A stretch of 64,000 nt of DNA, from assembly GCA_963668175.1 (NCBI GenBank), contig OY764159.1, positions 1,792,001-1,856,000 of the forward strand, given 5' to 3'. Below, piece by piece: positions 1,999-25,945 of this stretch (within the stretch, counting starts at the first letter, position 1; every line of letters begins with the position of its first letter). The translations under genes were made by a program, and so were the position numbers. The notes under the pieces were generated by a model that ran no database searches, was not told the DNA's origin, and worked only from the letters and a program-made list of their open reading frames with translations. This DNA is from Syntrophales bacterium (GTDB lineage Bacteria; Desulfobacterota; Syntrophia; Syntrophales; PHBD01).

Positions 1999-2814
1999 TC
2001 AGCCGTAAAGCTCCGGACGCCTGTCGTCGAAGTACGTGACGATTTTCCGCCATTTATCCTGCCTGGCGGGATTAATCTCCGCCGCGGCGAAGCCTTCTTC
2101 CCCGTCCATGGCGGCCAGGACCTTGCCCGAAAAATCGACGATCTTGCTGTGCCCGTAGTAACCCCCGCCCGTCTGGTTGCTCGCCATCACGAAGACCTGG
2201 TTTTCGATCGCCCGCGCCGGGAGAAGCTTGTCCCACACGCCTCCCGCCGAAGCCGGCCACGCCGAGGCGTTGAGGACGATGCGGGCGCCCCGGAGGGCCA
2301 GGGTCCTGAAGACTTCCGGGAAATTCAGGTCGTAGCAGATGGTCGGTCCCACGGTGAACGGCCCCATATCCCAGACGGCCAGTTCGTTGCCCGGGGCGAC
2401 ATAGTCTTCCTCTCTCGCGTCCTTTTCGTGGTAAAGGTGGGTCTTACGGTAGGCGTGCACCGCGCCCGAAGGCGTGAAAAGGAGGAGCGCGTTGGCGATC
2501 TTGTCTTCAGCCGTCTTGAAGAAGGAGCCGCAGCCGATGTAGATGCCTCTTCCCGCGAGGCCTTTCATGGCCTCGACCCACCGCGAGGAAGGGCTGTTGG
2601 CCATGCCCGATGCCAGCCGCAGAGCCTCTTCGACGGTCCTGGTGCGGTCCAGGACGATATAGCCGAGGTCCGCCCCTTCCGGAAAGAGGATGAACTGCAC
2701 ACCTTCCGCCTGTGCTTTTTCCGCCAACGTCAGGATCTTTTCCTCGTTCTCTTCCTTCCGGAAACAGCCTGATACGAACTGGGCCACCGCCGCCTTGAAT
2801 ACGCCGTCTTTCAT
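1999..2814 (-). CDS. Carbon-nitrogen hydrolase (nitrilase/omega-amidase family)
   Basis: Catalytic triad motifs LFPEG, YRKTHL, ICYDLNFPE, plus ARAIENQ and GHSKIVD. ATG at 2814 chosen over the ORF-track start. Confidence 0.9.
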   Translation of the reverse strand: MKDGVFKAAVAQFVSGCFRKEENEEKILTLAEKAQAEGVQFILFPEGADLGYIVLDRTRTVEEALRLASGMANSPSSRWVEAMKGLAGRGIYIGCGSFFKTAEDKIANALLLFTPSGAVHAYRKTHLYHEKDAREEDYVAPGNELAVWDMGPFTVGPTICYDLNFPEVFRTLALRGARIVLNASAWPASAGGVWDKLLPARAIENQVFVMASNQTGGGYYGHSKIVDFSGKVLAAMDGEEGFAAAEINPARQDKWRKIVTYFDDRRPELYG

Positions 2815-2830
2815 GCTAACCCTTTCTTTC

Positions 2831-3526
2831 TCATGCCGGCTCCCCCCGGTCGAAGGCAAGCCGCACCTTTTGCAGGTGGCGTTGCAGGAGCCTGCCCGCT
2901 TCCTCGGGGTCCCGTTTCTTAAGCGCCTTCAGGATCTTTTTGTAATCCTCGATAAAAGGCGAAATGCTGCCCTGTTTTTCGAGCGCCAGGAAGGCCGTTC
3001 TCCTGACGTGATCGTTAAAGCCCCTGATGACGCCCGCCATCATGTCGTTCCCGCACCGTTCGAGGAACATGTTGTGGAACTGCATGGAATAGTCCACATA
3101 CGACCTCACGTCGTTCTTCCGGAAGGCCTCTTCGAGCTTCTCCAGAAGTTCCTCGCCGGCTTTCACGTCGCCGGGCGTGATGTGGGCCGCCGTTTTCCTG
3201 ATGGCCGCCACTTCCAGGAGTTCCCGGAGTTCCGCCAGTTCCGCCACCATCTTTTCGTCGACTGCGGTCACGCTGGGCCCCTTGAACGGGATGTTGACGA
3301 CGAAGCCCTCCTGGACGAGGCGGTTCATGGCCTCCCTGACGGGCGTTGTGCTGATGCCCAGCTCGCCGGTTATTCTGGCGAGGTTCAGCCTCTCCCCCGG
3401 CGCGAACTTCAGCGAAATAATGGCCTCCTTGAGGATGTCGTAGGCGTTTTCGCTCAGCCTGACGTCCTCGATTTTTTTGAGCCTGCCTTCTCCCTTGTCC
3501 GTCTGTTTCCGCACGGTGTCCGTCAT
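2831..3526 (-). CDS. GntR-family regulator (FCD domain)
   Basis: wHTH PGERLN...LGISTTPVREAM...L; FCD segment ELRELLE...FH. Confidence 0.92.
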   Translation of the reverse strand: MTDTVRKQTDKGEGRLKKIEDVRLSENAYDILKEAIISLKFAPGERLNLARITGELGISTTPVREAMNRLVQEGFVVNIPFKGPSVTAVDEKMVAELAELRELLEVAAIRKTAAHITPGDVKAGEELLEKLEEAFRKNDVRSYVDYSMQFHNMFLERCGNDMMAGVIRGFNDHVRRTAFLALEKQGSISPFIEDYKKILKALKKRDPEEAGRLLQRHLQKVRLAFDRGEPA

Positions 3527-3548
3527 CGCGCCGCTCCTTGGGGTCTTA

Positions 3549-4742
3549 TTAGGAGGCTTTTGCCGGTTTCCCGAACGAGATGGCGGGGCAGATACAGGTG
3601 CATACGCCGCACCCCCGGCAGTCTCCCACCGTCACTATATTATCTTTTATCCCGATTGCGCCATAAAAACATGCATCGACGCAGCGGCCGCAGAGCACGC
3701 AAAGGTCCTCGTCGATCTGCGCCCTTTCCTTCTCGAATTTTTCCATTTCGGCGTACGTGAGGGCCTTATCCGCCGCCAGGCCGACGATCTCCGCGGCCGT
3801 CGCATAACCGAGCCTGTCCAGGAGATCGTTCGTTTCCTTCACCGTCTTCCCGTACCAGCCGTACCCTTCGGCCATGGCGACGGAACAGAGCTGGACCACG
3901 GTGGCTCCCGCCATCATGTACTCCGCGACGTCCCTGCCGTCATAGGCCCCGTTCGATCCGGCGATGGGGATGCCCAGGTTCCGGTAAATCTCGTAAATCC
4001 ACCGGAGCGTCAGGGGTTTGACCCACGGGCCGCCCACGCCCGCCGTCCCGTACAGATGGGGCGCGGCATTCTCCACGTCGACGAGGAAGCCCACGAAGCG
4101 GTTCATGATCGTAACGGCGGCGGCACCGGCGGCCTTTACGCTCCGCGCCATGTCCGTCACGTCCTTTACCTGCGGCGTCAGCTTCACGATGACCGGGATG
4201 GAGACGCTCCGGGCCACGGCGCTCACGACCTCCACGGCCAGGTCCTTGTCCTGGCCGATCAGCATGCCCGTTTTTGTCTCCTCCATCTGGGAGGGGTGTG
4301 GGCACCCCAGGTTCATTTCGAGCATCCGGACCCCCGTGTCCTCGGTCATCCGGGCGAGTTTCACCCACCCCTCTACATCGGTGGACGCGATGCTGCCGAT
4401 GACGACGCACCCTTCGCCGTCCCCGATCTCCCGCGCCTTCCTGATATCTTTCAGCCATTCCTCGGGCTTGTCCTCATGCAGTCCCGTCCGGCCGTAAAGC
4501 GTGAACAGCCGCGGGACGCTGCCGTTGCATACCTTGTGTTCCTCGTCGAAGAACCGCCACCGGGTCTGGAAGCTCAGCTTCCTCATCGCCTCCGAATCGG
4601 TGACCGTCTTGACCACGAGCCCGCCGACGCCGCTTTCAACGACCCTCCGCATGTTCTCCAGATTCGCCGTCGGCTCCGCCGACGCCGCTATGACGGGGTT
4701 TTTGAATTCGACCCCCAGAAAATCGACCTTTAAATGCGCCAC
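3549..4742 (-). CDS. PreA-like dihydropyrimidine/dihydroorotate dehydrogenase-family flavoprotein with C-terminal 2x[4Fe-4S]
   Basis: FLGVEFKNPVIAAS, GGLVVKT, EMNLGCPH (catalytic Cys loop), VKLTP, C-terminal CVLCGRCVDAC and CRGCGVCTCICP. GTG start at 4742 with GAAGGGAG RBS. Confidence 0.85.
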   Translation of the reverse strand: MAHLKVDFLGVEFKNPVIAASAEPTANLENMRRVVESGVGGLVVKTVTDSEAMRKLSFQTRWRFFDEEHKVCNGSVPRLFTLYGRTGLHEDKPEEWLKDIRKAREIGDGEGCVVIGSIASTDVEGWVKLARMTEDTGVRMLEMNLGCPHPSQMEETKTGMLIGQDKDLAVEVVSAVARSVSIPVIVKLTPQVKDVTDMARSVKAAGAAAVTIMNRFVGFLVDVENAAPHLYGTAGVGGPWVKPLTLRWIYEIYRNLGIPIAGSNGAYDGRDVAEYMMAGATVVQLCSVAMAEGYGWYGKTVKETNDLLDRLGYATAAEIVGLAADKALTYAEMEKFEKERAQIDEDLCVLCGRCVDACFYGAIGIKDNIVTVGDCRGCGVCTCICPAISFGKPAKAS

Positions 4743-4759
4743 AACCAAGCTCCCTTCTG

Positions 4760-5452
4760 TTACACGTACGTGGGAATTTCCACGCGGTATTTGCACCAGA
4801 GCGAATCTCCCGATACCGGATTGAAAAGCTCCACCTCGAAACCCTCTCCGGGCAGCATGGCGCCCCCGATGGCCGAAACTGTGCCGGAAAAGATGATCAT
4901 GTTTTCCATGTCGCCGTCCTTCACCCTGCCTTTTACGAAAGCGAGAAGGTCGTCCACGCCCATGAACGCCGAAAGCGCCGCTTCCTGGTAGAGGATTCTC
5001 CGACCGTCCCGGATGACCCAGCTTCGGAGCACCATCTCGTTCCAGACGGCCGCCACGTCCTCGTAAGGCCATACGACGGCGGACATCACATTGGGGCACA
5101 TCTGCTTCGCCTTGAGGATGCTGGCCGCTTCCAGCGCCCGGTCCGTATGGTCGCTTCCCGCCCCGACGTACATGCGGCCCTCCTCGATCAGCAGCACGAA
5201 TTCGGCTTCCCCGGAATTGTCCTCCTCCACCACTTCGAGGACGCCCCCCGTCTTGATCAGGTAGGACGCGACGGGGTAGAGCGTCGGCACCTCGTCCGGC
5301 GCCGGAATGCCTTTCTCCTTCAGTTCCTCGATATGTCTCCTGACGCCTTCCTGGTCCCTCGCGGTGTAGCCCGCGTTGACCATCCGCCGGACCGGGAATG
5401 CGATGTCCCTGAGCCCGCTTGCGCTCTTCACTTTTAAATTCAATACGTGCAT
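4760..5452 (-). CDS. DUF2848-family protein (FAH-like fold, unknown function)
   Basis: AGYTARD...HIEEL...GIPAP...P.LYPV, SGEAEFVL, GSDHTDR.LE...KQMCP, W..M.LRSW, LYQE. Confidence 0.8.
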   Translation of the reverse strand: MHVLNLKVKSASGLRDIAFPVRRMVNAGYTARDQEGVRRHIEELKEKGIPAPDEVPTLYPVASYLIKTGGVLEVVEEDNSGEAEFVLLIEEGRMYVGAGSDHTDRALEAASILKAKQMCPNVMSAVVWPYEDVAAVWNEMVLRSWVIRDGRRILYQEAALSAFMGVDDLLAFVKGRVKDGDMENMIIFSGTVSAIGGAMLPGEGFEVELFNPVSGDSLWCKYRVEIPTYV

Positions 5453-5498
5453 GGGTTCCCCCGATTCCAGGACTTTCGTCGATGCATGCCTGCGTTTG

Positions 5499-5837
5499 TC
5501 ATTTCTCGTAATTCCGGATCTCGAACGTCATCATCCCGCTCTCGGAATAATACGGTCCGTGGACCATGCCCGGATGACGGTACCCGTAGTACCCCTTCCC
5601 GAAGACGGCGCCGCTCCTCGTATCGACGAAGGAGCCTTCGAGCACGAGGATCTCTTCGTGGAAGTCGTGGGTGAGGACGTCGTTCGTTCCCGTGCCCGGC
5701 TCGTACTTCAGGAGTCTTGTGACGCTGTTCGTTTCCGGGTCGACGTTGAGGACCTTTTCGAAGACGCCGGGGGTGCCGGCGACGGGCTCCCAGGCGATCG
5801 ACGCCGTTTCGTGAATTTCCTGTTCCTTCTTGGCCAT
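5499..5837 (-). CDS. ChrR-like cupin domain protein
   Basis: TRLLKYEPG...THDFHEEILVLEG...GYYGYRHPGMVHGPY cupin His/Glu pattern. Confidence 0.8.
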   Translation of the reverse strand: MAKKEQEIHETASIAWEPVAGTPGVFEKVLNVDPETNSVTRLLKYEPGTGTNDVLTHDFHEEILVLEGSFVDTRSGAVFGKGYYGYRHPGMVHGPYYSESGMMTFEIRNYEK

Positions 5838-5882
5838 GGTATGCTCCTTCCCGTTAACGATATAAATGATGCCGACGCTTCT

Positions 5883-6434
5883 TCACGCCCGGTCCCTGAG
5901 TCCGGAGGCCAGGGCGCGGCCCGATTCCAGGGCCTTCAGGTTGATGTCGACGAGCGACGGCGAGAATTTCTGTTTGAGGACCGCCGCCACGGACTCCTGC
6001 GACGATATGCCCGACAGGGCGACGATGCTCCCCAGGGCGACGATGTTGGCCGCCGTTTCCATTCCCAGTCTCCTTGCCTCCTCGGTGAAGGGTATCATGA
6101 AGACCTTCGATTCCGTAGGCGGCACCCTGGTCACGAACATCGAATCGGCAAGGACGAGGCCCGACCTCTTCGTCTTCGGGACGTAGAAATCCGCTATCGG
6201 CTGGGACATGGCGAGGAGCACGTCGGGTTCCGTGACTTTGACTTCGTTCAACTCCTCCGAACTGACCAGCACCTCGGCGCGGCTCATGCCGCCCCGCATG
6301 GATATGCCGTACGCTTCCGTCTGCAGGACATTCTTTCCCTCGATCTCGGCGAGGGTCTGGGCGAGGATGACGCCGGCGATTCCCAGTCCCTGGCCGCCGC
6401 TTCCGCCCAAGAGTATTTCCAAAGTTCCCTTCAT
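5883..6434 (-). CDS. 2-oxoacid:ferredoxin oxidoreductase gamma subunit
   Basis: GSGGQG, YG...RGG.S.AEV, ANIVALG, N.KAL..G. ATG at 6434 overlaps the beta stop (ATGA). Confidence 0.9.
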   Translation of the reverse strand: MKGTLEILLGGSGGQGLGIAGVILAQTLAEIEGKNVLQTEAYGISMRGGMSRAEVLVSSEELNEVKVTEPDVLLAMSQPIADFYVPKTKRSGLVLADSMFVTRVPPTESKVFMIPFTEEARRLGMETAANIVALGSIVALSGISSQESVAAVLKQKFSPSLVDINLKALESGRALASGLRDRA

Positions 6435-7279
6435 CCTTTCGCCCTTCCTTTCTGCGCCTCGGCGATGATTTTGTCGTATTCCTCCGTGAATTCCGGCAGC
6501 GTCTTTTCCACGAGAATCCCCCGCAGCAGTTTGTCTGCGAGGGCGTCCGCCGGGAGGTCCTTCGCCTTCTTCACGGAAACCGTAACGTCCTTCTGGGCCT
6601 TCCACATCTGCGCCGCAGCGCCCAGGCGGTTCCTCCTGCCGAAGGCCGTGGGGCAGGGCGTCAGGACCTCGATCAGCGAAAAGCCCTTGTGCCTGATGCC
6701 TTTTTCGATGATGTCGATCAGCTCCCTGACGTAATAGACGGCGCCCCTGGCGACGAAGGTCGCCCCGGCCGCCTCCGCGACGCGGCACAGGTCGACGGGC
6801 TTTTCGATATTGCCGTAGGGGGTCGTCGACGTAATGGCGTCCACCGGCGTCGTCGGGCCCACCTGCCCGCCCGTCATGCCGTAGTTGTAGTTGTCGTAGA
6901 CGATGGCGGTGAGGTCGATGTTCCGCCGGCAGGCGTGGAGGAGATGGTTCCCGCCGATGGCGGCGCAGTCCCCGTCGCCCATCGTGACGACGACGTTAAG
7001 CCCCGGGTTCGCCAGCTTGATGCCCGTGGCGCTCGGCAGGGCTCTGCCGTGGGCCGACTGCAGGGCGGTGAACGTCGTGTACCAGTGGGCCACGGGGGCG
7101 CAGCCGATGCCGGCCACGTGGATCACCTTGTCCAGGTCCAGGCCCAGCCGCTCCACGGCCCTAGCCATGGCCATGACGACGGTGCCGTTGCCGCATCCGG
7201 GGCACCACATGGTGGGCATCTGGTGCGTATAAAAATATTTCTCCACGAGGGAGGACGTGGAAGGTTGTTCAGAGCGCAT
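6431..7279 (-). CDS. 2-oxoacid:ferredoxin oxidoreductase beta (TPP-binding) subunit
   Basis: WCPGCG, GIGC, HGRA, GDGD...IGGNH, YGMTGGQ, PCPT. Confidence 0.93.
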   Translation of the reverse strand: MRSEQPSTSSLVEKYFYTHQMPTMWCPGCGNGTVVMAMARAVERLGLDLDKVIHVAGIGCAPVAHWYTTFTALQSAHGRALPSATGIKLANPGLNVVVTMGDGDCAAIGGNHLLHACRRNIDLTAIVYDNYNYGMTGGQVGPTTPVDAITSTTPYGNIEKPVDLCRVAEAAGATFVARGAVYYVRELIDIIEKGIRHKGFSLIEVLTPCPTAFGRRNRLGAAAQMWKAQKDVTVSVKKAKDLPADALADKLLRGILVEKTLPEFTEEYDKIIAEAQKGRAKG

Positions 7280-8420
7280 GATGCACCTCCATTATTTTCC
7301 GGAGTATTTCGGCCGAGGAAAAGGCCTCGCCCACGCGCGCAAGCGAGACGATTTCCGCCTTCTGTCTGCAGGCGGCCTCCCTCACGGGATGGATGTACTG
7401 ACCCAGGTTCATTTCCGGAACGATGATCGCCCTGGCCTTGTCCGCCGCGGCCCGGACTTCGTCTTCCGGAAAGGGCCAGAGGACGCGGGGCCGCATAAAC
7501 CCCACCTTAAGCCCCGACTCCCTCGCCTTGAGGACGGCCCCCCTGGCGGCGATGGCCGTGCAGCCGTAGGCGAGGACGACGATATCCGCATCTTCCATGA
7601 ACTCTTCCCGGACGTCCGTTATCTCTTTCCTGTTTTTTTCGATTTTGTTTGTGAGCCTTTCGATCAGGAGCCTGGACACGGCGAAATCGCTCGTGGCCTG
7701 GAAGCTGTCCTCGTTGTGGGCGCTGCTGTTTGCGTACCAGTGGTAGGGCGTCCCGAATTTCGCCATGGGCGGGACCCCCTTGTCGTTCCCCCGGTAGGGG
7801 TGGTACTGGTCCGGGGGCACGTCGGGTTCGGGCCTGTAGGCCGTTTTGACCGTCTCGTACGGCGGGAGCGTGACATTTTGCCGCATGTGCCCCACGACCT
7901 GGTCCGCGAGGAGGATGACGGGCACCCTGAACCTCTCGGAGAGATCGACCGCCCTGATCGTCAGGTCGAACATCTCCTGCACCGACGCGGGCGACAGGGC
8001 GATGATGGCATAGTCCCCGTGGGAGCCGTATCTTGCCTGCATCACGTCGCCCTGGGCCGGCGACGTCGCCATGCCGATGGACGGCCCCACCCTCTGCACG
8101 TTGACGAGCACAAGGGGAACTTCCACCATGCAGGCGAGCCCCAGGTTCTCCATCTTCAGCGAAAACCCCGGTCCGCTCGTCGCATCCATGGCCTTGACGC
8201 CGGTGAGGGCGGCCCCGATCGCTGCGGCGAGGCTTCCTATCTCGTCTTCCATCTGGATGAATTTTCCTCCGACCTCGGGGAGCCGCCTGGACATGACGTT
8301 GGCGATCTCGTTCGACGGCGTTATGGGATATCCCGCATAGAACCGGACGCCCGCCGCGATGGCGCCTTCCGCGCAGGCCTCGTTCCCCTGCATCAGCTTC
8401 ACTTTTCCTGTCTGTTCCAT
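7269..8420 (-). CDS. 2-oxoacid:ferredoxin oxidoreductase alpha subunit (KorA-type)
   Basis: GNEA.AEGA, YAGYPITPS, QMEDE, ATSGPGFSL, QRVGPS.G, EMNLGQ. Confidence 0.93.
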   Translation of the reverse strand: MEQTGKVKLMQGNEACAEGAIAAGVRFYAGYPITPSNEIANVMSRRLPEVGGKFIQMEDEIGSLAAAIGAALTGVKAMDATSGPGFSLKMENLGLACMVEVPLVLVNVQRVGPSIGMATSPAQGDVMQARYGSHGDYAIIALSPASVQEMFDLTIRAVDLSERFRVPVILLADQVVGHMRQNVTLPPYETVKTAYRPEPDVPPDQYHPYRGNDKGVPPMAKFGTPYHWYANSSAHNEDSFQATSDFAVSRLLIERLTNKIEKNRKEITDVREEFMEDADIVVLAYGCTAIAARGAVLKARESGLKVGFMRPRVLWPFPEDEVRAAADKARAIIVPEMNLGQYIHPVREAACRQKAEIVSLARVGEAFSSAEILRKIMEVHHAL

Positions 8421-8424
8421 ATGT

Positions 8425-8610
8425 TCACACCTCTAATTCGACGGCATAATCCGGACACCATAATTCGCAAAGTCCGCACTTGCTGCATTTGTCCGCATGG
8501 ACAGGCTCCGGATAGCCTTCATCATTTGCTGCATAGACTTCCCGCGGGCATAACCCGATGCAGACGCCGCACTTTTTGCATCGCTCCGTATGAATCACAA
8601 TCTGGCTCAT
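8425..8610 (-). CDS. 2x[4Fe-4S] ferredoxin, OFOR delta subunit
   Basis: MSQIVIHTERCKKCGVCIGLCP...CSKCGLCELWCPDYAV; ATG at 8610. Confidence 0.9.
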   Translation of the reverse strand: MSQIVIHTERCKKCGVCIGLCPREVYAANDEGYPEPVHADKCSKCGLCELWCPDYAVELEV

Positions 8611-8659
8611 TTCATCAGCTCCATCGTTCCTTTTTCGCTCTTGGGGACATACCGTTGTT

Positions 8660-8696
8660 TCGTATATCGTATATGATATACGATATACGATGTCAA
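8660..8696 (-). promoter_or_regulatory. Sigma70-type promoter overlapped by a 31-bp perfect palindrome (probable GntR operator)
   Basis: TCGTATATCGTATAT-G-ATATACGATATACGA (8660-8690) lies directly after minus-strand TTGACA (8696-8691). Confidence 0.7.
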
Positions 8697-9925
8697 GAAA
8701 ATCTTGCAACCCCCCGGAACCACATGTGTCCATGGGGTGCTCCCGGATGCGCGGCGTGAAAATGACGGTGAATGGGTCAGGCGGACCGGATGCAGCGGCA
8801 GGGCTTCCGGTTCTCCGCGGCTATTTTTTACTTTCCCCGGCAAACGGGATACGGACTTCGATTTCGTCCGGTTTCAGGGATGGTCCGGTAAAGGTGTCTT
8901 CAGTATGAAATAAAGGGAAGGGAGACGAAAGATAGACGGCACTATCCGCAACGGCAGGGCATATAAGGCCGGTACGATGTGAATCGGGCTCGGCGTGAGA
9001 TATCAGAAGCCATTTCGAGATTCGTTGCGGGTGGAACGGCATCTTCGAACGCGCCTGTCGGGACGGTCTGACCCGGCGTATTGACCGTAATTGAAGCAAC
9101 GTGTTGTTCGTAGCGGAAGCGGTAAGGCGGATGCGACAATATCCGGGAGGCTGGTCCCGATGAAGAATCCGCTCATTTTCTGTTGGGGGTTTATATCGTT
9201 TCCCCGGCCTGTTTATCACCTTCCCGGATTCCGGAACGCCGGGAAACTATCATGCGTGATCCGGGGCGCCGTATGCCCGTTGTCCGCAACAATTGTGTAT
9301 CGTTTTCCCGGGAAGGGACAAATATGTCTTGTTTCCCAAAGACTTCATGAGAAGCCATCCGCCGCTTGACCTCGCGCCGTATCCGAAACAGTTCCAGCCC
9401 CTTACCGGTCTTCCTCGTCGCCTTCTCCGGGACGGCGACAGCGGATGGCACAGATCTTGATATCTAAAGTTACAAAGAGCGTATGAAGTCGCAGGCAGGG
9501 CGCGATGAGCCATGGCGATTCAGTGGAGCTCCGCTCGTTGCGGCGCAAAGGATGACCATTCTCTTATAGGTCGACGATCGGTCGGGTGCAGAACATATCC
9601 CGCGGCCGTTTCCGGATACGTCACGGAAGGCATGACGATGTCGCGGGGTCGGCAAAAGCTGATCGTCAACAGGGGCGGGGTATTCCGGCTTCGGAATGCC
9701 CCGATGAGAGAATGAAGGTTTGAGCGGGGTTGGGGAAGCTTAGCGCTTCAGGAAAGATTATCGTCCGACACGGGAGGTATGGTTGCAGTGAAAAGGGTAC
9801 GGCGGGATCAAGACGGGGCAGGCGGCGTAAAGTTAAAGAGGGAGTTCTTTCCTGATATTATGGAATTAACGGAATTATACTTAACACCGATTTCAAACGG
9901 CACTTGAAAAGATGTTTCTTTTCAT

Positions 9926-9953
9926 TCTAATATCTGATATATCAGATATTAGA
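9926..9953 (+). promoter_or_regulatory. 28-bp perfect palindrome (probable GntR autoregulatory operator)
   Basis: TCTAATATCTGATA/TATCAGATATTAGA about 30 bp upstream of the GntR gene; overlaps a TTGAAA-N18-TAATAT promoter-like spacing. Confidence 0.7.
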
Positions 9954-18047: not shown

Positions 18048-19706
18048 ATGCCCCGAATAATTTTTGATCAGTTGAAGATTAAGCAGAAAACGGGATTGGA
18101 TACCAGGAACGCGCTACTCTACCCCCATATGGATCTCGATTCTTGCGTCATGTCGTCTCCCGTTCTCAAAGAAGATGATGATGGGTCGCTCCTCCTGTTC
18201 GTCAAGGACATCGAACGCGGCAACTTCGATGAAAAGATGATCAAGGCGCGGGTCAGCTATTTCAAGCCCTATTTCACATTCGACGGCGTACCCGAACAAA
18301 CGCCGAACACATGGACGGAAGGACTTCAATCCGGGGGGGCAGGCGCCGCCATTGCCGTCGACGGCCAGATCCACATGTCGGCCTACCGGCCGTTGGCCGA
18401 AAAATTCAGGATAACGATAGAGGCAAATCCGCCCTGGTGGCGGGTATATCTTTACGAAATCCGTCCCGAGGATATCTTGTCCGCCTTCGGCGCATCGTAC
18501 GCCGCCGCCCAGAAAGACGCGGACAAAGTCGCATCCGGCCTGCAGCAGAAGGCGGATGTCCTCCGCCTGGTCGAGAGGGCTTACGTCGATGATCGCTTCC
18601 TTGCTCTGGACAAGACGATGGAGAAGATGGGCCTCGAGACGATCGTCGTTTCCTCCCCGATGAATCTTCAGGAAATGGCGGGGATTCCGTTCGCATATCT
18701 TGAAAGTTCCCCGTGCCTCGCTCTCTATCGGAAAGGCGGTCCCGTCTTCCTGTTGACCTCCGCACCACTGGCGCAGAACTTTCCGGTGTTGACGGGCGTG
18801 TTCCCCGATATCGAAGCGGCCGTGAAGACCCTTCCCGTGAAGTTGAATTCCACGGTCGGCATTGAAGAGAATCACCTGTCTTACGACTTTTACAAAGCCC
18901 TCGGATTAAGCGACAACGATCAGGCGATCAGCGCCGCACTGCGGGTATGGCGCGAGCAGAGAGCAGGATGGGAACTGCCGTACTATCTCCTGGCCGCCCG
19001 GATAACCGTTTACGGAATTGAAACCGCGCTGGAACGGGTGAAAAACGCCCTCAAGCAGGGGAAGTCCCTTCTTGAAACGGACGTCGAACAGTATCTCTAT
19101 GACGGTTACCAGGAATATGTCAAAGCCAGGGGGCTCGGCAGTATATCCGTCAAACCTTATTTCACCGTATTGCATGCCGGGAACCGCACGAGAAGACCCA
19201 ACCTGCCGCAGGCGTTTCCCGTCGATTCGGCGACGAAATCCCTGAAGATCGATTCCGGGGTATTGGTGATGGATGCAAGCGGACTGATCCGGGGCGTCTC
19301 GGATTTGTGCCGTACGCTTGCCCTGGATGAAGCCGCGGAGGAGATATACGCGTACTTCGATAAAACCATGATCGATACGACCATTCCCGCGTCCGTTCCG
19401 GGCAACGACGGCGACGTCGTCTATCGGAAGGGCGTCGGCACGCTGGCGGCCATGAAGGAGAAGCTGGTCGCTCGCAACCTCGTTCCCGACAAGGCCGTCC
19501 TTCCGGACGATTACCGCCGCAACATCGGCCATGTGCTCGGCAAGCAGGAACCGGCGACGATCAGTTTCGAAACGGGCAACCATGACGTCATCGAGGAAGG
19601 GATGGTCGGTTGCGTCGAATATCAATGGCCCTATTATCCCTATGCCATCGGCGTGGAAGACATGTTCTACATAGATCGTCAAAAGACGTTCAATATTACG
19701 AGATGA
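18048..19706 (+). CDS. M24 (creatinase/prolidase-fold) metallohydrolase with long N-terminal extension
   Basis: Creatinase_N-like segment RF..L...M...GLETIVVSSP.N; metal ligands IDSG, SDLCRT, GHVLG, CVEY, VED. ATG at 18048 with AGGAGG RBS. Confidence 0.75.
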   Translation: MPRIIFDQLKIKQKTGLDTRNALLYPHMDLDSCVMSSPVLKEDDDGSLLLFVKDIERGNFDEKMIKARVSYFKPYFTFDGVPEQTPNTWTEGLQSGGAGAAIAVDGQIHMSAYRPLAEKFRITIEANPPWWRVYLYEIRPEDILSAFGASYAAAQKDADKVASGLQQKADVLRLVERAYVDDRFLALDKTMEKMGLETIVVSSPMNLQEMAGIPFAYLESSPCLALYRKGGPVFLLTSAPLAQNFPVLTGVFPDIEAAVKTLPVKLNSTVGIEENHLSYDFYKALGLSDNDQAISAALRVWREQRAGWELPYYLLAARITVYGIETALERVKNALKQGKSLLETDVEQYLYDGYQEYVKARGLGSISVKPYFTVLHAGNRTRRPNLPQAFPVDSATKSLKIDSGVLVMDASGLIRGVSDLCRTLALDEAAEEIYAYFDKTMIDTTIPASVPGNDGDVVYRKGVGTLAAMKEKLVARNLVPDKAVLPDDYRRNIGHVLGKQEPATISFETGNHDVIEEGMVGCVEYQWPYYPYAIGVEDMFYIDRQKTFNITR

Positions 19707-19758: not shown

Positions 19759-20886
19759 ATGGGAAGTCAAGTGAAATTATTACAGGGCAACCAGGCCATC
19801 GCGGAGGGCGCGTTTTACGCCGGGGCGCGGTTTTATGCCGGATACCCGATCACGCCTTCTTCGGAGATCGCCGAGGAGTGTTCGAGAAGAATGCCGAAGA
19901 TCGGCGGGATGTATATGCAAATGGAAGACGAGATCGCGAGCATAGCGGCCATCGTCGGTGCATCGCTCGCGGGCGCCAAGTCGTTCACGGCGACGAGCGG
20001 TCCGGGCTTCTCCCTGATGCAGGAGAACATGGGCCTGGCGGTCCTCACGGAAGTGCCCTGCGTCGTGGTGAACGTACAGCGTTCCGGGCCGAGCACGGGG
20101 CTGGCGACGAAACCGGCGCAGGCGGACGTGATGCAGATCCGCTGGGGCAGGCACGGGGACCAGAGCATGATCGCCCTCTGCCCCGCGTCTGTGAAGGAGT
20201 GCTTTTACTACACGGTGAAGGCCTTTAATTTTGCGGAGAAGTTCCGGGTGCCGGTCGTTCTCGCCTCCGACGAGGTCGTGGCCCACATGCGGGAGAACAT
20301 CGTGATCCCGGCGCCGGGCGAGGTCGAGGTTGTCGACAGGAAGAAGCCGTCCTGTCCGCCCGAAGCCTACAGGCCGTTCCTGCCCGATGAAGACGGCGTG
20401 GCGCCGCTGGCGGCCTATGGAAGCGACTACGTATTCCATGTGTCGAGTTCCATGCACGGGCCCGACGGCTACAGCAACAACGATCCCGGCAACGCTGCGC
20501 AGCGGATCGAGCAGCTGCACCGCAAAATCGAAAAACACCGGGACGAGATCGTCATCGTCAAGACCTTCGACGCCGAGGACGCCGACGTCCTCCTGATCGC
20601 TTTCGGGGTGACGACCCGCGCCAGCCGCGCGGCGGCGTTGGAACTGAGGAAGAGGAAAATCAAGGCCGGCGTCCTGCAGTTGGTGACCCTGTGGCCGTTT
20701 GCCGATGTCGAGGTGGCCGAGTTCGGCGGCCGGGCGAAAACGGTCGTCGTGACGGAAATGAATTACAGCGGCCAGGTGGCCGGCGAAGTACAGAAGGTCC
20801 TTGGGTCCGGGACGGATATCCGGAGGGTCAAAAGCTACAACGGCCGGATCATTACGCCTCAGGACATCATCAAGGCAGTCGTTTGA
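19759..20886 (+). CDS. 2-oxoacid:ferredoxin oxidoreductase alpha subunit
   Basis: GNQAIAEGA, YAGYPITPSSEI, ATSGPGFSL, QRSGPSTG, EMN. Confidence 0.93.
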   Translation: MGSQVKLLQGNQAIAEGAFYAGARFYAGYPITPSSEIAEECSRRMPKIGGMYMQMEDEIASIAAIVGASLAGAKSFTATSGPGFSLMQENMGLAVLTEVPCVVVNVQRSGPSTGLATKPAQADVMQIRWGRHGDQSMIALCPASVKECFYYTVKAFNFAEKFRVPVVLASDEVVAHMRENIVIPAPGEVEVVDRKKPSCPPEAYRPFLPDEDGVAPLAAYGSDYVFHVSSSMHGPDGYSNNDPGNAAQRIEQLHRKIEKHRDEIVIVKTFDAEDADVLLIAFGVTTRASRAAALELRKRKIKAGVLQLVTLWPFADVEVAEFGGRAKTVVVTEMNYSGQVAGEVQKVLGSGTDIRRVKSYNGRIITPQDIIKAVV

Positions 20887-20920
20887 ATATGGAACGAAAA
20901 GATTCAAAAAGGGGGTTTAA

Positions 20921-21745
20921 GTGTCTCACGCAACAGGCATGAAATATATCAAGGACGGTGTCTTGCCGCACATGTGGTGTCCGGGATGCGGCATAGGCGT
21001 GACCATGGGCGCTTTGCTGCGTTCCTTCGAGGAACTGGGCTACGAGCGCAACGATACGGTCGTGGTGACGGGAATCGGCTGCACCGGCAAGCTGGACGAT
21101 TACCTGCTGACAAACGCGCTGCATACGACGCACGGGCGCGCCCTGGCTTTCGCCACCGGGATCAAGGCCTACAGGCCTGAGCTGCACGTCATCGTCCTGA
21201 TGGGGGACGGGGACAGCGTTACCATCGGCGGCAACCACTTCATCCACACCGCCCGAAGGAACATGGATCTGACGGCGATCGTCGTCAACAATTTCAATTT
21301 CGGGATGACGGGCGGCCAGTATTCCGGGACGACGCCGACGGGCGCATCGACCCAGACCAGCGCCTACGGCAACCCCGAAAGGGAGATGGATATCTGCTCG
21401 TTGGCGGAGGTCGCCGGAGCGAACTACGTGGCCCGCGGAACGCCTTACCACGTGTGGGAACTCAAGGAAAGCATCAAGGAAGCCCTGAACAAAAAGGGCT
21501 TCTCCGTCGTGGAGGTCGTCAGTCCCTGCCCGACGAACTACGGGCGCCAGAACAACATGAAGAAGGCGGTCGATATGCTCCACCGGCTGAAGGAGAAGGG
21601 CGTTCCCGTGGAGGAGTTCCGGCGCCGGAAAAGCGCCCGGAGCGACGGCCGCTTTGCGGTGGGCAAGCTGGTGGACAGGGACGAACCCGATTTCAACGCA
21701 CGTTACAGGGAAATCACGGCCAGGGCGACCGCAGGCCGGGGCTGA
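20921..21745 (+). CDS. 2-oxoacid:ferredoxin oxidoreductase beta subunit
   Basis: WCPGCG, GIGC, HGRA, GDGD..TIGGNH, GMTGGQ, PCPT. Confidence 0.93.
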   Translation: MSHATGMKYIKDGVLPHMWCPGCGIGVTMGALLRSFEELGYERNDTVVVTGIGCTGKLDDYLLTNALHTTHGRALAFATGIKAYRPELHVIVLMGDGDSVTIGGNHFIHTARRNMDLTAIVVNNFNFGMTGGQYSGTTPTGASTQTSAYGNPEREMDICSLAEVAGANYVARGTPYHVWELKESIKEALNKKGFSVVEVVSPCPTNYGRQNNMKKAVDMLHRLKEKGVPVEEFRRRKSARSDGRFAVGKLVDRDEPDFNARYREITARATAGRG

Positions 21746-21760
21746 GGAAGGTGATAGCGA

Positions 21761-22291
21761 ATGAAGAAAGACAGGTATGAAGTGATTATGGCCGGCTCCG
21801 GAGGCCAGGGCTTGGTTCTGTCCGGCATCATGCTGGCGGAAGCGGCCATCCTGGAGGGCAGAAACGTCGTACAGACCGTTTCGTACGGTATCGCGTCGAG
21901 GGGCGGTTTCTCCATGGCCGAAGTGATCATCGACCAGGAGGAGATCGTCTTCCAGCAGGTCCAGAATGCCGACATCGTACTGACCCTGACGGAGGACGCG
22001 ATGGAGAGATTCCTGCCCCTGTCGGAGCGCGGGGCGGCGATATTCTACGATTCGGTCCTGCTGAGGGCGCGTGAGGGTAAGCATTTCTACGGCCGGCCCT
22101 TCACGGAAATGGCCGACAGGATGGGGAACGTGGGCATGTCGAACATCATCGCCCTGGGGTACATGGCGCAGATGAAGGGCATGATTCTTCCGGAGAGTCT
22201 CGCGGAAGTCATCAAGAACCGTTTTTCCGGAAAAGTGAGGGATGCGAACCTAGCCGCGTTGCAGGCGGGAATCGTTCTCGCGAACGGATGA
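21761..22291 (+). CDS. 2-oxoacid:ferredoxin oxidoreductase gamma subunit
   Basis: AGSGGQG, SYG..SRGG.S.AEV, NIIALG. Confidence 0.9.
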   Translation: MKKDRYEVIMAGSGGQGLVLSGIMLAEAAILEGRNVVQTVSYGIASRGGFSMAEVIIDQEEIVFQQVQNADIVLTLTEDAMERFLPLSERGAAIFYDSVLLRAREGKHFYGRPFTEMADRMGNVGMSNIIALGYMAQMKGMILPESLAEVIKNRFSGKVRDANLAALQAGIVLANG

Positions 22292-22379
22292 TAAGAATAA
22301 TATCCAGCTCCCCCTGCCTGCCGCTTTCCGATACGGCGGGCGGAGAGAATGAGCGTCATAGAGTTTGAAAGGAGTCATG

Positions 22380-24002
22380 ATGGGAGTTCCCGATAATGAA
22401 CAGATAAAAATTGCTCCGTGCAGAGAGGCATGTCCGGCGGGCATCGATGTACCGCGCTATATCAGGTACATCAGGAACGGGGATTTCGACGAAGCGCTTG
22501 CGGTCATACGCGAAAGAATCCCATTTGCCGCCGTATGCGGGTATGCGTGCGCCCATCCCTGCGAGTCCCGGTGTGCGCGCATCCAGTACGATGAGGCCGT
22601 CGCCATCAGAAGGCTGAAGCGGGCAGCCGCAACCTACAGCCACCGGTCGCCCAAGAGCGAAGAGACGGCGAAATCGACTTCGAAAAAGGTGGCCGTTATC
22701 GGTTCGGGACCGTGCGGTCTGACGGCGGCTTACTACCTGGCCGAACTGGGGCATAGCGTTGCGATTTTCGAAAAGCTTCCCAAGGCGGGAGGGATGTTGC
22801 GTTACGGTATCCCGGAATACCGTTTGCCCAAGGACATTGTCGATCGTGAAATTGCCTTTATCAAATCCCGGGGTGTCGGCATTGTAACCGGCACGAAAGT
22901 CGATTCAGCCGCGAAACTGCTGTCGGAAGGCTTCGATGCCGTGCTGGCTGCATCCGGCGCCTGGAAAGCCCAGAAGATGGGTATCGAGGGAGAGGGGCTC
23001 CCCACGGTCGTCGACGGCGTCAAGTTTCTTGCGGAATACAATTCGGGCGTTCGCCGTCCCGTCGGCAAAAGGGTGGTCGTCGTCGGAGGCGGCAATACGG
23101 CTGTGGATGCCTCCCTGGCGAGCGTCCGCATGGGTGCGAAGGTCGTGCTCGTTTATCGGAGAAGCCGCGAGGATATGCCGGCCCTGCCGGAGGAGATCGC
23201 CCAGGCCGAAGAGGAAGGCGTGCGCATCCAATGTATGGCCGTGCCCGTACAGATCACGAAAAGCAGGATCGTCTGCATCAGGACGGCCCCCGGTCCCGTC
23301 GACGGCAGCGGAAGGCCCAGACCCGTTCCCGTCGAAGGCAGCGAGTTCGCCTTGTCCTGCAATGCGGTTGTTATGGCCGTCGGCCAGTCGGCCGACGCCG
23401 GCGCGCTGGGGCTTGCCGGAAACGGCGACGGAACGATTGCCGCCGGTGCCGATACGGCCACGCAGAACAAAGGGATATTCGCCGCCGGCGATGCGGCCAC
23501 CGGTCCGATGACGATCATCAACGCCATTGCCCAGGGGCGCCTGGCTTGTGCCGCGATCGACCGCTTTCTCGGCGGTAAAGGCCGGATCGGCCGGGATGCT
23601 TCGCCGGGCGCGGTCCCGGAACCGTCGGAACCGGAGCCCATGGGCACGTGCCGCGTGGAGCCGGGAAGGATCCCCCTCAGTGCCAGATTTCAGGGAGTCG
23701 GTCCCGTGGAGTACAGTTACAGCGAAAAGGAGGCCGTGGAGGAAGCCGGGAGGTGCCTGTCGTGCGATGTCCGCCGCTACGAGGTGGAGATCGATCCGGT
23801 TATCTGCAAGGCGTGCGGTTACTGCCGAGAGATGTGCCATATGGACATCTTCGGTGTTTCGGACACATTCAACGCCGGCGGCTACAAGCCGTCCGTCGTG
23901 AAACGCTCGGACCGTTGCGTGGGATGCCTGAAGTGCCTCTACGTCTGTCCGGATTTTGCGATCAAGATCAACGACGGCTGCGGCGGCGCCGCGGCCGTAT
24001 AG
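22380..24002 (+). CDS. GltD/NfnB-like FAD/NADPH oxidoreductase fused to a C-terminal OFOR-delta-type ferredoxin
   Basis: APC...CPAGID...CG..C..PCE..C, GSGPCG, GGMLRYGIP.YRLP, GGGNTA.D, YRRS, GD, EAGRCLSC, then CKACGYC..C and CVGCLKC...CPDFAI. Confidence 0.88.
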   Translation: MGVPDNEQIKIAPCREACPAGIDVPRYIRYIRNGDFDEALAVIRERIPFAAVCGYACAHPCESRCARIQYDEAVAIRRLKRAAATYSHRSPKSEETAKSTSKKVAVIGSGPCGLTAAYYLAELGHSVAIFEKLPKAGGMLRYGIPEYRLPKDIVDREIAFIKSRGVGIVTGTKVDSAAKLLSEGFDAVLAASGAWKAQKMGIEGEGLPTVVDGVKFLAEYNSGVRRPVGKRVVVVGGGNTAVDASLASVRMGAKVVLVYRRSREDMPALPEEIAQAEEEGVRIQCMAVPVQITKSRIVCIRTAPGPVDGSGRPRPVPVEGSEFALSCNAVVMAVGQSADAGALGLAGNGDGTIAAGADTATQNKGIFAAGDAATGPMTIINAIAQGRLACAAIDRFLGGKGRIGRDASPGAVPEPSEPEPMGTCRVEPGRIPLSARFQGVGPVEYSYSEKEAVEEAGRCLSCDVRRYEVEIDPVICKACGYCREMCHMDIFGVSDTFNAGGYKPSVVKRSDRCVGCLKCLYVCPDFAIKINDGCGGAAAV

Positions 24003-24266
24003 GGCCGAACGGACCGGCGCAGGAGGGAGGCCCGGAATCCCGCATCCCGCGCCGGGAGAGGTTTCGTTGCAGGAGGGGGCCGCAGCGTTTGCCAAAGGCA
24101 GGAACATAAGGCGGCTTCCAAAGACCGTTTTTTACGGGGATCGGAGGACCATCCTTCATATATACACCGTGCTTTTAACCCGGATTGGCGATCCGGAGCC
24201 AAAGAAACCGAGGGGGATGCCTCGTCACGCTGAAGAGCCTACAGGGAAATGAAAGGGGTTGATTTT

Positions 24267-24482
24267 ATGGGTGTTGAATTACTGTCCCCCGCTCCGGGGA
24301 AAATACTGAAGATACACGTGAATCGGGGTGATCTGGTCACCGAGGACACGGCCGTGATCCGCCTGGAAGCGATGAAGATGGAAAACGAGATATTCGCTCC
24401 CGCCGGCGGCACGGTAACTGAAATCAGGGTGCGGGAAGGCGACGAAGTCGAAACGGACGACGTCATGGCGGTGATTAATTGA
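24267..24482 (+). CDS. Biotin carboxyl carrier protein (decarboxylase gamma-type)
   Basis: SPAPGKI...G...LEAMKMENEI.AP..G.V biotinylation motif. Confidence 0.9.
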   Translation: MGVELLSPAPGKILKIHVNRGDLVTEDTAVIRLEAMKMENEIFAPAGGTVTEIRVREGDEVETDDVMAVIN

Positions 24483-24611
24483 CGATCGTCTCCATATAAC
24501 GGGGAGGACCGCCGCTTCCGTCGTCCGGTACGACCGGGCAAGGACGAGTTGACGGCCGGGCGCTTCGGACGCTTTAAGCGCCCGGCCTTATTATGCAGGA
24601 GGATGTGCGTC

Positions 24612-24773
24612 ATGACTGTTCCAGACAGCCTTCAGGGGGCCTTGGTGTTGAGCTTCGTCGATTTGGCCCTGAGTTTCATTCTGATCGGGGGCATAGGTGT
24701 GATTCTGTCCCTTTTCCCCTATATCAACAAGTTGGGCACGATCGACGAACGCAAACTCGGCGATGGTCATTAA
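24612..24773 (+). CDS. Small single-TM protein, OadG/GcdD-like decarboxylase anchor subunit
   Basis: 53 aa with a hydrophobic stretch, AGGAGG RBS, located between the biotin carrier and beta subunit genes. Confidence 0.6.
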   Translation: MTVPDSLQGALVLSFVDLALSFILIGGIGVILSLFPYINKLGTIDERKLGDGH

Positions 24774-24814
24774 AAATAATAAACGGAATAAAATGAGAAA
24801 CCCGAGGAATCCGA

Positions 24815-25945
24815 ATGGCCGAACAATTCGTTTCCCTTCTTGACGCCCTGAAAAACCAGACCGGCCTCGTCCATTTCTGGTGGGGCAACATGATCATGAT
24901 CGCCGTCGGCGTGCTCATGATCTATCTGGCGATAGCAAAGAAGTACGAGCCCTTTCTGCTCATCGGTATAGGGTTCGCCTGCATCGTGGCCAATGTGCCC
25001 GGCTCCGATCTGATCCTGCCGGGCGGTCTTTTCAATTATGCTTACCGCGGCGTCGCGCTGCTCATCATTCCACCCCTTATCTTCCTGGGGGTGGGCGCCA
25101 TGACGGACTTCGGGCCGATGATCGCCAATCCTTCGCTGGTCATTCTGGGTGTGGCGGCCCACCTGGGCATCTTCATCGCCCTCATCGGGGCGAAAATGAT
25201 AGGTTTCACGATCCATGAGGCCGGAGCGATTGGCATCATAGGCGGTGCCGACGGTCCGATGGCGATTTTTGTAACGATGAAACTCGCTCCTCACCTGCTT
25301 CCCCAGGTTTCCGTTGCGGCCTATTCCTACATGGCATTGATGCCGCTGATCCAGCCGCCGGTCATGAAGCTGCTTACAACCAAGAAAGAACGCGAGATTG
25401 TGATGAAGGCGCAACGGAAGGTGAGCCGATTGGAGAAAATCGCATTTCCCATTGTCATTGCCGTCATCGTGAATCTCTTTTTGCCTCCGGTGGCGCCGCT
25501 GATCACGATGCTGATGCTCGGAAACCTCTTTCGGGAATGTGTGCTCGTCAACCGGCTGGCGAAGACGGCGGCCAACGACCTGATGAATGTCATCACCATG
25601 ATGCTGACGGTGGCCATCGGCTCGACGATGGTGGCCGACCAGTTCCTGACGCTCAAAACGCTGATGATCATAGCCCTCGGACTGGTCGCATTCGTGACCG
25701 GTACGGCCTCGGGGGTCTTGGCCGCCCGGGTGATGAACTGGGTGAGCAAGGGGAAGATCAATCCGCTTGTGGGCTCCGCGGGGATCGCCTCGGTGCCGAT
25801 TGCGGCCCGCGTGTCCCATGTTGTGGCGTTAAAAGACAATCCGAGGAATTTTCTTGTGATGCATGCCATGGGCCCGAATCTGGCGGGTGTTTTCGGGACC
25901 GCCATCTCCGGCGGGATCATGTTGGCCCTGCTGGGGGCGGTATAG
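24815..25945 (+). CDS. gcdB: Na+-translocating decarboxylase beta subunit (GcdB/OadB family)
   Basis: YEPFLL..IG, PPLIFLGVGAMTDFGP, GIIGGADGP, AAYSYMAL.P.IQPP, HAMGPN.AG. Confidence 0.92.
   Translation: MAEQFVSLLDALKNQTGLVHFWWGNMIMIAVGVLMIYLAIAKKYEPFLLIGIGFACIVANVPGSDLILPGGLFNYAYRGVALLIIPPLIFLGVGAMTDFGPMIANPSLVILGVAAHLGIFIALIGAKMIGFTIHEAGAIGIIGGADGPMAIFVTMKLAPHLLPQVSVAAYSYMALMPLIQPPVMKLLTTKKEREIVMKAQRKVSRLEKIAFPIVIAVIVNLFLPPVAPLITMLMLGNLFRECVLVNRLAKTAANDLMNVITMMLTVAIGSTMVADQFLTLKTLMIIALGLVAFVTGTASGVLAARVMNWVSKGKINPLVGSAGIASVPIAARVSHVVALKDNPRNFLVMHAMGPNLAGVFGTAISGGIMLALLGAV

Follow-up and report, generated by a model that had tools for sequence, protein, structure and literature searches.

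Two divergent gene sets of a Syntrophales bacterium that probably degrade a nitrogen-containing organic acid via a 2-oxoacid to an acyl-CoA

Which compound do two divergently transcribed gene sets of a Syntrophales bacterium break down, and is their product coupled to a Na+ pump? We analysed 64,000 nucleotides of contig OY764159.1 (assembly GCA_963668175.1, forward-strand positions 1,792,001 to 1,856,000); this whole stretch is called the window, and coordinates count from its first letter. A minus-strand set (1999–8696) and a plus-strand set beginning at 9926 each contain a GntR/FCD regulator, a long perfect palindrome and a 2-oxoacid:ferredoxin oxidoreductase (OFOR), as a preliminary description of this DNA had stated and as Pfam, NCBIfam and the sequence bear out. 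That description had read the locus as a route from a C6 amino-dicarboxylate, or a lactam or N-heterocycle, to 2-oxoadipate and glutaryl-CoA. Its plus-strand gene list (amino-acid dehydrogenase, DUF1445, importer, M24 hydrolase, OFOR, NADPH oxidoreductase and decarboxylase subunits) was confirmed almost item by item, and the genes form a coherent, apparently uncharacterised catabolic combination whose core, an M24B hydrolase and an ELFV-type dehydrogenase with or without an OFOR, recurs in other anaerobes. A lactam or N-heterocycle is a plausible substrate; the C6 step fared poorly in the comparisons below. The two repressor-controlled sets probably degrade a nitrogen-containing organic acid by way of a 2-oxoacid to an acyl-CoA. 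The most likely candidate substrates are glutamate-family lactams or D-amino acids, for instance 5-oxoproline or D-glutamate, or a ring-substituted relative, and the main line would most probably run from 2-oxoglutarate to succinyl-CoA.

The plus set encodes a three-domain M24B metallohydrolase of 552 amino acids (18048–19706, +), whose M24 identity rests on its relatives, its fold and its metal ligands. Pfam detects only a weak Creatinase_N domain (E 2.7e-5) and no PF00557 above the gathering score, and comparison by sequence with solved structures gave only a chance-level match (E 0.032). The family is rare: a search of 5.8 billion clustered proteins yielded 20 matching clusters, 11 of which carry PF00557. 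In a model built on 19 sequences (pLDDT 87), a pita-bread catalytic fold and an N-terminal creatinase-type domain are both predicted, and Foldseek matched the model with probability 1.0 to XPNPEP1, prolidases, creatinases and EutD (TM at most 0.76 on the target), with DddP also among the matches. Profile alignment with the Pyrococcus horikoshii prolidase (1wy2) paired the five metal ligands, which we take to be those of prolidase, with D402, D419, H495, E524 and E537, all invariant across the 19 sequences, indicating that the window protein is a metal-dependent M24B hydrolase. Creatinase has, as we understand it, lost those ligands, hence the protein is not creatinase-like. Its atlas look-alikes were only clusters labelled 'M24 family', and a literature search on 5-oxoproline and M24 hydrolases in anaerobes returned no paper.

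Scanning one genome per species gave 21 loci with matches of the M24B family, around which neighbours were sought by tblastn (E ≤1e-8, coverage ≥50%). Eight distinct loci are close to that of the window (M24B identity 40–52%, and 33% at L009); L002 and L008 count as one, being from the same bin with the M24B gene split over two contig ends. In their record titles they are assigned to Bacillota, Peptococcaceae, Armatimonadota, Syntrophaceae and Chloroflexota. An ELFV gene adjoins the M24B gene in seven of the eight (L001, L003, L004, L005, L007, L008 with L002, and L009); at the eighth, L006, only about 1.1 kb of contig lies upstream of the M24B gene. An IclR regulator accompanies six (L001, L003, L004, L005, L006 and L008; not L007 or L009), and an Asp/Glu-racemase-superfamily protein five (L001, L002, L003, L005 and L007), its best NCBIfam match being EutA at 123 bits, well under the cutoff of 318. 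An OFOR is present in three (L001, L002 with L008, and L005), and PxpABC with an aldehyde:ferredoxin oxidoreductase lies beside the M24B gene in two (L004 and L006). At L009 alone the order is DUF2848, ELFV (62% identical to that of the window) and M24B, an adjacency that bridges the plus and minus units of the window. The Armatimonadota locus L005 holds two M24B copies: the first (1417–2970) is split into two open reading frames (ORFs) by a frameshift or sequencing error, and the second (8630–10282) is intact, beside a TRAP transporter.

One pointer to the chemistry is the plus-set DUF1445 gene. Its product, a D-glutamate-cyclase-family protein (UPF0317/DUF1445; 11917–12756, +), scores 363 bits against NF003969 (cutoff 324) and 261 bits against the Atu3911 structure. 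Among six plasmid contexts of DUF1445, PxpA/B/C genes are neighbours in three (Azospirillum, Lactiplantibacillus and Pseudoalteromonas, the last also with a D-amino-acid aminotransferase), and 5-oxoprolinase-type genes lie nearby in four overall; a hydantoinase/oxoprolinase, an Xaa-Pro-peptidase-family M24 protein, and an MFS transporter only are each found in one. The Azospirillum plasmid has in a row a Liv-type ABC importer, as in the window, DUF1445 and PxpB/C/A. Because of these contexts and the PxpABC genes at L004 and L006, the module can be tied to 5-oxoproline/D-glutamate chemistry. Judged by titles and the beginnings of abstracts, no paper retrieved for DUF1445 addresses its function, and among the matches listed for D-glutamate cyclase with 5-oxoprolinase none concerns bacterial physiology. 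Downstream of DUF1445 lies a five-gene Liv/Urt-type ABC importer (13017–17675, +; binding protein, two permeases and two ATPases by Pfam and NCBIfam), from whose binding protein no ligand can be inferred, its best solved relatives being urea- or branched-chain-type at 66 bits or less.

The dehydrogenase of the plus set is a short ELFV protein of 381 amino acids (10741–11886, +; PF02812 and PF00208) that reaches 212 and 196 bits against the NCBIfam glutamate dehydrogenase (GDH) equivalogs, under their cutoffs of 620 and 750. The Lys of its G-x-G-K-G-G aligns with the Lys of G-P-x-K-G-G in GDHs, and Ala stands where solved GDHs carry the side-chain-binding Ser (after N-A-G-G-V); Lys and Ser are presumably the pair that holds the side-chain carboxylate. 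The short type occurs in more than 120 listed clusters, over 60 of them at 76% identity or more, and those few with an organism name belong to Thermodesulfobacteriota or Deltaproteobacteria bins. This distribution suits a general enzyme of the group better than one dedicated to a pathway.

After the M24B gene come the alpha, beta and gamma subunits of OFOR2 (19759–22291, +; Pfam and NCBIfam), 50/45/40% identical to those of OFOR1 in the minus set and 73/65/57% identical to those at L001. OFOR2 has no separate delta subunit, and that of OFOR1 is free-standing; the next gene of the plus set encodes a GltD-like NAD(P)H flavoprotein with a C-terminal OFOR-delta-like 2x[4Fe-4S] domain (22365–24002, +; OGOR_delta at residues 464–535). 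The same ferredoxin–GltD fusion follows the OFOR at L001, and together the fused domain and its recurrence make a 2-oxoacid:NAD(P)+ oxidoreductase the likely unit. Both OFORs show the alpha/beta/gamma(/delta) architecture. They fall under the 2-oxoglutarate-specific cutoffs (alpha, NF007206, 371–374 bits against 579; beta, NF007207, 267–270 against 364), and the alphas satisfy the generic 2-oxoacid model NF006412. Overall the alphas score 371–516 bits with 2-oxoglutarate- or 2-oxoacid-type models versus 94–108 with pyruvate-type ones.

The minus set, all on the minus strand, runs from a candidate operator with a promoter-like element (8660–8696; TTGACA at 8691–8696, a 31-nt palindrome at 8660–8690). 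OFOR1 comprises a 61-residue 2x[4Fe-4S] ferredoxin as delta (8425–8610; OGOR_delta-like by Pfam and NCBIfam, its start re-read as 8610 from a listed ORF extending to 8733), an alpha subunit (7269–8420; POR_N and PFOR_II, NF006412 at 510 bits, cutoff 411), a TPP-binding beta subunit (6431–7279; Pfam, with NF007207 as top NCBIfam model at 270 bits, under the cutoff of 364) and a gamma subunit with an approximate start (5883 to about 6428; in a 301-residue ORF the POR domain begins at residue 131 and the NF006323 alignment at residue 124). There follow by Pfam a Cupin_7 protein (5499–5837), a DUF2848 protein (4760–5452; 201 bits), a PreA-like flavin/Fe-S reductase with DHO_dh and 2x[4Fe-4S] domains (3549 to about 4747), GntR/FCD regulator 1 (2831–3526) and a nitrilase-superfamily C-N hydrolase of amidase type (1999–2859; CN_hydrolase). 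The last reaches no NCBIfam cutoff, and its solved relatives are Nit-type nitrilases and amidases. The PreA-like protein scores 228 bits against the PreA equivalog NF006183 (cutoff 335) and has no GltD-like, PreT-type partner in the minus set, so that it is not counted as PreA; its top solved relatives are dihydropyrimidine and dihydroorotate dehydrogenases. An N-terminal extension of this protein in the listed 516-residue ORF overlaps DUF2848 and was rejected as an ORF-calling artefact, the start being re-read near 4747.

DUF2848 has, in its AF2 model (pLDDT 96), the FAH-superfamily fold (the FAH C-terminal domain). Foldseek placed it nearest to 4maq (E 3.5e-9, TM 0.65–0.67), followed by FAHD1, KdaD and YisK, with fumarylpyruvate hydrolase and Cg1458 also among the matches; at the sequence level no solved FAH protein was matched. 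Its near-invariant residues (H40/E43 and E82/E84/D101/K116) resemble what we take to be the catalytic set of FAHD1, and the fold matches presumably all act on 2-oxoacids bearing a function at C4. Elsewhere DUF2848 is fused to Cupin_7 (P0025) and to CN_hydrolase (P0061), and it adjoins a cupin and an amidase on a Caballeronia plasmid and a cupin and an aminotransferase on a Ralstonia plasmid. Given these fusions and neighbours, the cupin, DUF2848 and amidase genes of the minus set make up a real module. A full-text literature search for DUF2848 returned no paper.

GntR/FCD regulator 2 (9981–10679, +; Pfam) lies behind a 28-bp perfect palindrome (9926–9953) that overlaps a promoter-like -10 and is the candidate plus-set operator. 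The half-sites of the two operators have 11 of 15 bases in common by manual count, and the regulators are 32% identical; two related palindromes fit two paralogous repressors. No further copy of the plus-set operator was found at up to three mismatches (16-mer core). The plus genes may or may not form the single operon previously proposed: they are interrupted by untranslated gaps of 372 bp (17676–18047) and 246 bp (24003–24248). Neither gap contains a notable palindrome, and Rfam gave no match in the whole window, so that neither holds a known riboswitch. A 128-residue ORF across the first gap (17681–18067), Arg/Ser-rich in translation and matching no family, was judged unlike a real protein. 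Terminator and promoter scans were not above chance (22 versus 19.9 expected and 17 versus 12.6, respectively), and neither kind of site could be placed in the 246-bp gap. Between the divergent promoters, about 1.2 kb (8760–9925) hold no recognisable gene; the ORFs 8821–9219 (-) and 9091–9369 (+) match no family.

From gene content, folds, metal ligands, operators and synteny we infer every substrate and every reaction of the following scheme. In the plus unit, the ABC importer would take up the substrate, and the binuclear-metal M24B enzyme would open an amide, cyclic or N-substituted, that neighbours an alpha-carboxylate, giving an acidic alpha-amino acid without ATP. DUF1445 would interconvert a D-amino-dicarboxylate and its lactam, shuttling the former into the lactam pool. 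The short ELFV would remove the amino group of the L-amino acid and so leave a 2-oxo-dicarboxylate (2-oxoglutarate being the most likely), which OFOR2 would convert to an acyl-CoA, most likely succinyl-CoA, with electrons passing through the fused ferredoxin–GltD protein to NAD(P)+. In the minus unit, the amidase, the FAH-fold DUF2848 with its cupin and the PreA-like Fe-S flavoprotein would trim a 4-substituted or amidated 2-oxoacid to the substrate of OFOR1, whose ferredoxin could feed the PreA-like reductase. We tentatively favour this reading, in which two GntR/FCD-repressed units serve one family of imported nitrogen-containing carboxylates, likeliest a glutamate-family lactam or D-amino acid.

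Several points weigh against this scheme. Hydrolysis of 5-oxoproline by a metal enzyme alone is thermodynamically uphill, and the presence of PxpABC beside M24B at two loci could imply another role for the hydrolase. An FAH-fold enzyme has no obvious role on 2-oxoglutarate, and four transporter types accompany the M24B gene across loci, giving no clue to the substrate. All ELFVs adjoining M24B genes score under the NCBIfam GDH cutoffs; relative to solved GDHs the pocket Ser is Ala in six of six aligned, and relative to Thermococcus GDHs the Lys is Arg in all four aligned M24B-linked ELFVs of Bacillota/Syntrophaceae type. Because of these scores and pocket changes glutamate specificity cannot be assumed, and glutamate may not be the substrate of the M24B-linked ELFVs. 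The decarboxylase genes behind OFOR2, discussed below, could also be co-transcribed with it. As a separate observation, the ELFVs of L001, L004, L007 and L008 are about 415 residues long and score at most 384 bits against Thermococcus GDHs of known structure; with Arg for Lys and Ala for Ser, they are possibly an uncharacterised specificity class.

The enzyme families are all known, but the literature as far as it was searched describes neither their combination nor the rare M24B family, nor what DUF2848 does, nor the substrate. If true, the favoured scheme would give the first physiological context for this M24B family, none of whose members is characterised, for DUF2848 and for the bacterial D-glutamate-cyclase homologues, and would show how anaerobes short of energy can open stable lactams at no cost in ATP.

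Of the other explanations, the one that survives best supposes no single pathway: the region would be a patchwork of independent modules, brought together by chance or island assembly, namely a general GDH, a 2-oxoglutarate:NAD(P)+ oxidoreductase for reducing power, an importer with a peptidase, and generic membrane subunits of glutaconyl-CoA decarboxylase (Gcd). The base composition fits such a history, with G+C at 0.60–0.63 in the minus set (2001–8000), 0.52–0.55 from ELFV to M24B (10–20 kb), 0.61–0.62 over OFOR2 and GltD (20–24 kb) and 0.57 at 24–26 kb; these steps at module borders suggest assembly from modules of different histories. The long internal gaps, the abundance of the short ELFV beside the scarcity of M24B, and accessory genes around M24B that differ between loci point the same way. 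However, the M24B–ELFV adjacency persists in seven of eight close loci of varied taxonomic labels, L009 joins the two units of the window, and the operators of both regulators are related. We consider a mere patchwork unlikely.

The second alternative is the C6 route of the preliminary description, in which 2-aminoadipate, or 6-oxopipecolate after opening of its lactam by DUF1445 or M24B, would yield 2-oxoadipate; OFOR2 would form glutaryl-CoA, the dehydrogenase Acd would produce glutaconyl-CoA, and a Na+-pumping Gcd would act on it, with GcdA working together with the carrier, small and beta subunits encoded behind OFOR2. Those three genes are a biotin carrier of 77 residues (24249–24482, +; Biotin_lipoyl domain, A-M-K-M biotinylation motif), a 74-residue protein that has a single hydrophobic stretch and sits where the small anchor subunit would be expected (24549–24773, +; no family match, its role read from position only) and a Na+-translocating decarboxylase beta subunit (24815–25945, +; TIGR01109 at 442 bits, cutoff 191). 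The non-decarboxylating Acd (61541–62701, +; NF045552 at 731 bits, cutoff 470) and GcdA (62762–64000, +; cut by the window end) lie at 61.5–64 kb as earlier described, behind a two-subunit family-I CoA-transferase (59597–61422, +; Pfam). GcdA reaches 497 (3gf3) and 493 bits with GcdA proteins of known structure and 128 with the next family; it is 36.8 kb from the trio. A beta subunit, a biotin carrier and GcdA, as expected of a Gcd, are present and not encoded together, and the small anchor is unrecognised; by its sequence the beta subunit could serve a Gcd or another decarboxylase.

For the C6 route speak the position of the trio, which lies behind OFOR2/GltD in the same orientation, no terminator being detected between them and a terminator-like hairpin standing behind the beta gene (26096–26113, +; the site count of the region is not above that of shuffles), and the presence of Acd, GcdA and a CoA-transferase within the same 64 kb. 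Possible co-transcription of OFOR2 and the trio is the one observation that keeps this version alive. The window ELFV also keeps the anion-binding Lys and has Gly and Ala at the two pocket positions that are Ala and Ser in solved GDHs, smaller residues that could admit one more methylene. No pathway with a 2-oxoadipate:ferredoxin oxidoreductase appeared among the literature matches (a docking study only), and the 15 matches listed of 75 for 6-oxopipecolate were metabolite studies in human, animal or Penicillium, with no microbial hydrolase.

Yet the full gene set is not conserved together in the related loci, which the preliminary description had named among the observations that would refute it: the beta subunit, the carrier, DUF1445 and GcdA occur in none of the 21 loci, and the only Acd-like match is an acyl-CoA dehydrogenase of 26.5% identity at L020. 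The 21.6-kb context of L001, whose OFOR is the close relative of OFOR2, has no glutaryl-CoA genes. DUF1445 keeps 5-oxoprolinase-type, that is C5, neighbours elsewhere, and the short ELFV is common in Desulfobacterota-type bins, as a general GDH would be. The G+C mosaic and the 246-bp gap separate the trio from OFOR2, and in Acidaminococcus the membrane subunits of Gcd reportedly form an operon apart from gcdA. Because the trio is absent from the related loci and a true GcdA and Acd are in the window, it is best read as the membrane module of a Gcd serving the distant GcdA, and not as an obligate part of the catabolic pathway. We regard the C6 route as improbable. Slightly less probable still is a wider version, in which strict anaerobes would have an ATP-independent route for lactams of acidic amino acids (5-oxoproline and/or 6-oxopipecolate type): M24B would open the ring, an atypical ELFV and an OFOR coupled to ferredoxin–GltD would lead on to an acyl-CoA, and DUF2848, cupin, PreA-like protein and amidase would form a side branch for substituted rings, the product being glutaryl-CoA in this bacterium, with its decarboxylation coupled to a co-transcribed Na+ pump. 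The C6 route, if true, would be new, and a new Na+-coupled C6 pathway would matter more than the favoured scheme; present evidence does not carry that claim.

Very doubtful is a C4 route that would start from, for example, a ring of dihydroorotate, hydantoin or imide type. The PreA-like reductase would act on the unsaturated ring, a carbamoyl or amide group would be taken off by the nitrilase-type protein, and the aspartate set free would be converted by the ELFV to oxaloacetate, by DUF2848 or the Na+ pump subunits to pyruvate and by the OFORs to acetyl-CoA. This route would suit the fold matches Cg1458, FAHD1 and YisK (which we take to be oxaloacetate decarboxylases), the solved relatives of the PreA-like protein, the Arg of the four M24B-linked ELFVs, which would reach a shorter acidic side chain, and the EutA-like racemase-superfamily neighbour (the ectoine pathway presumably ending in aspartate), but the OFOR alphas favour 2-oxoglutarate- over pyruvate-type models, no oxaloacetate carboxyltransferase domain was found among the window ORFs scanned, PxpABC and DUF1445 indicate C5 chemistry, and the ELFV of the window itself retains Lys.

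The 12 distant proteobacterial loci (M24B identity 25–32%) have a different context. An SdhA-like flavoprotein adjoins the M24B homologue in eight (L011–L013 and L016–L020), most of these also with an adjacent small 2Fe-2S protein, and genes for CoA-transferase III, a Cys/Met-type PLP enzyme, enoyl-CoA hydratase, a PrpD-like protein and FMO are frequent as well. From these neighbours we read the distant clade as having a paralogous function; since DddP, which we take to be the DMSP lyase, is an M24 fold match, it may act on a sulfur or onium compound. At the alphaproteobacterial locus L021 (6801–11674), the M24B homologue adjoins a Cupin_7-like gene and a xanthine-dehydrogenase-type molybdenum hydroxylase, an arrangement typical of N-heterocycle degradation.

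A second catabolic block lies further downstream in the window (29297–47884). It encodes a butyryl-CoA:acetate-type CoA-transferase (345 bits, under cutoff), another Liv-type ABC importer, acyl-CoA dehydrogenases and enoyl-CoA hydratases (two of each), a glycerol-dehydrogenase-subfamily Fe-dependent alcohol dehydrogenase, an HpaB-family protein, a short-chain dehydrogenase/reductase, an MFS transporter, a family-III CoA-transferase and MaoC dehydratases. The HpaB family of anaerobes presumably includes 4-hydroxybutyryl-CoA dehydratase; if the protein is such an enzyme, the block could take succinyl-CoA-derived 4-hydroxybutyrate to crotonyl-CoA. Three sigma-54 activators are encoded in the window (3–566, partial; 27421–29244; 57963–59393). 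Sigma-54-like sites with one mismatch occur at 9446–9460, between the divergent promoters, and at 26375–26389, 31227–31241 and 41706–41720 (+) and 30678–30692 (-), the latter four 90–270 bp upstream of MaoC, second ABC, hydratase and CoA-transferase genes; the -24/-12 pattern is not above chance in the window (39 matches versus 51 expected).

Parts of the locus resemble several known systems. With glutamate fermentation and benzoate degradation that use a Na+-pumping Gcd it shares GcdA, a Desulfococcus-type Acd, the beta subunit and the carrier; unlike in those systems, 2-hydroxyglutarate pathway genes are absent beside the ELFV, and the OFOR–Gcd link is not conserved. DUF2848 has its fold in common with the FAH-superfamily enzymes of 2-oxoacids (fumarylpyruvate hydrolase, FAHD1 and KdaD), from which it differs in showing no sequence-level match. 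The order of an OFOR followed by an FAD/Fe-S protein, as a route to NAD(P)+, is that of OFORs with a GltD-like flavoprotein, which we take to include the 2-oxoglutarate:NADP+ oxidoreductase of Azoarcus and the NADH-dependent phenylglyoxylate dehydrogenase; in contrast to these, the delta ferredoxin of the window is fused to the flavoprotein, and phenylglyoxylate dehydrogenase models reach only 38–75 bits against window proteins. The ectoine pair EutD/DoeA and EutA likewise sets an M24B enzyme on a small cyclic amino-acid derivative, and EutD is among the fold matches, but the M24B type described here is about 550 residues long, has an extra N-terminal domain and shares 11–14% identity with EutD in the fold alignment, and an ELFV and an OFOR come next in place of DoeB/C/D-type genes. 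In the 5-oxoproline clusters of PxpABC and DUF1445 (YcsI), DUF1445 stands beside an uptake system and a lactam-opening enzyme, as in the window, and the IclR regulators of such clusters have counterparts at the related M24B loci. PxpABC itself is missing from the window, and an M24B enzyme occupies the place expected of the lactam hydrolase; by analogy with these clusters, M24B would replace PxpABC here.

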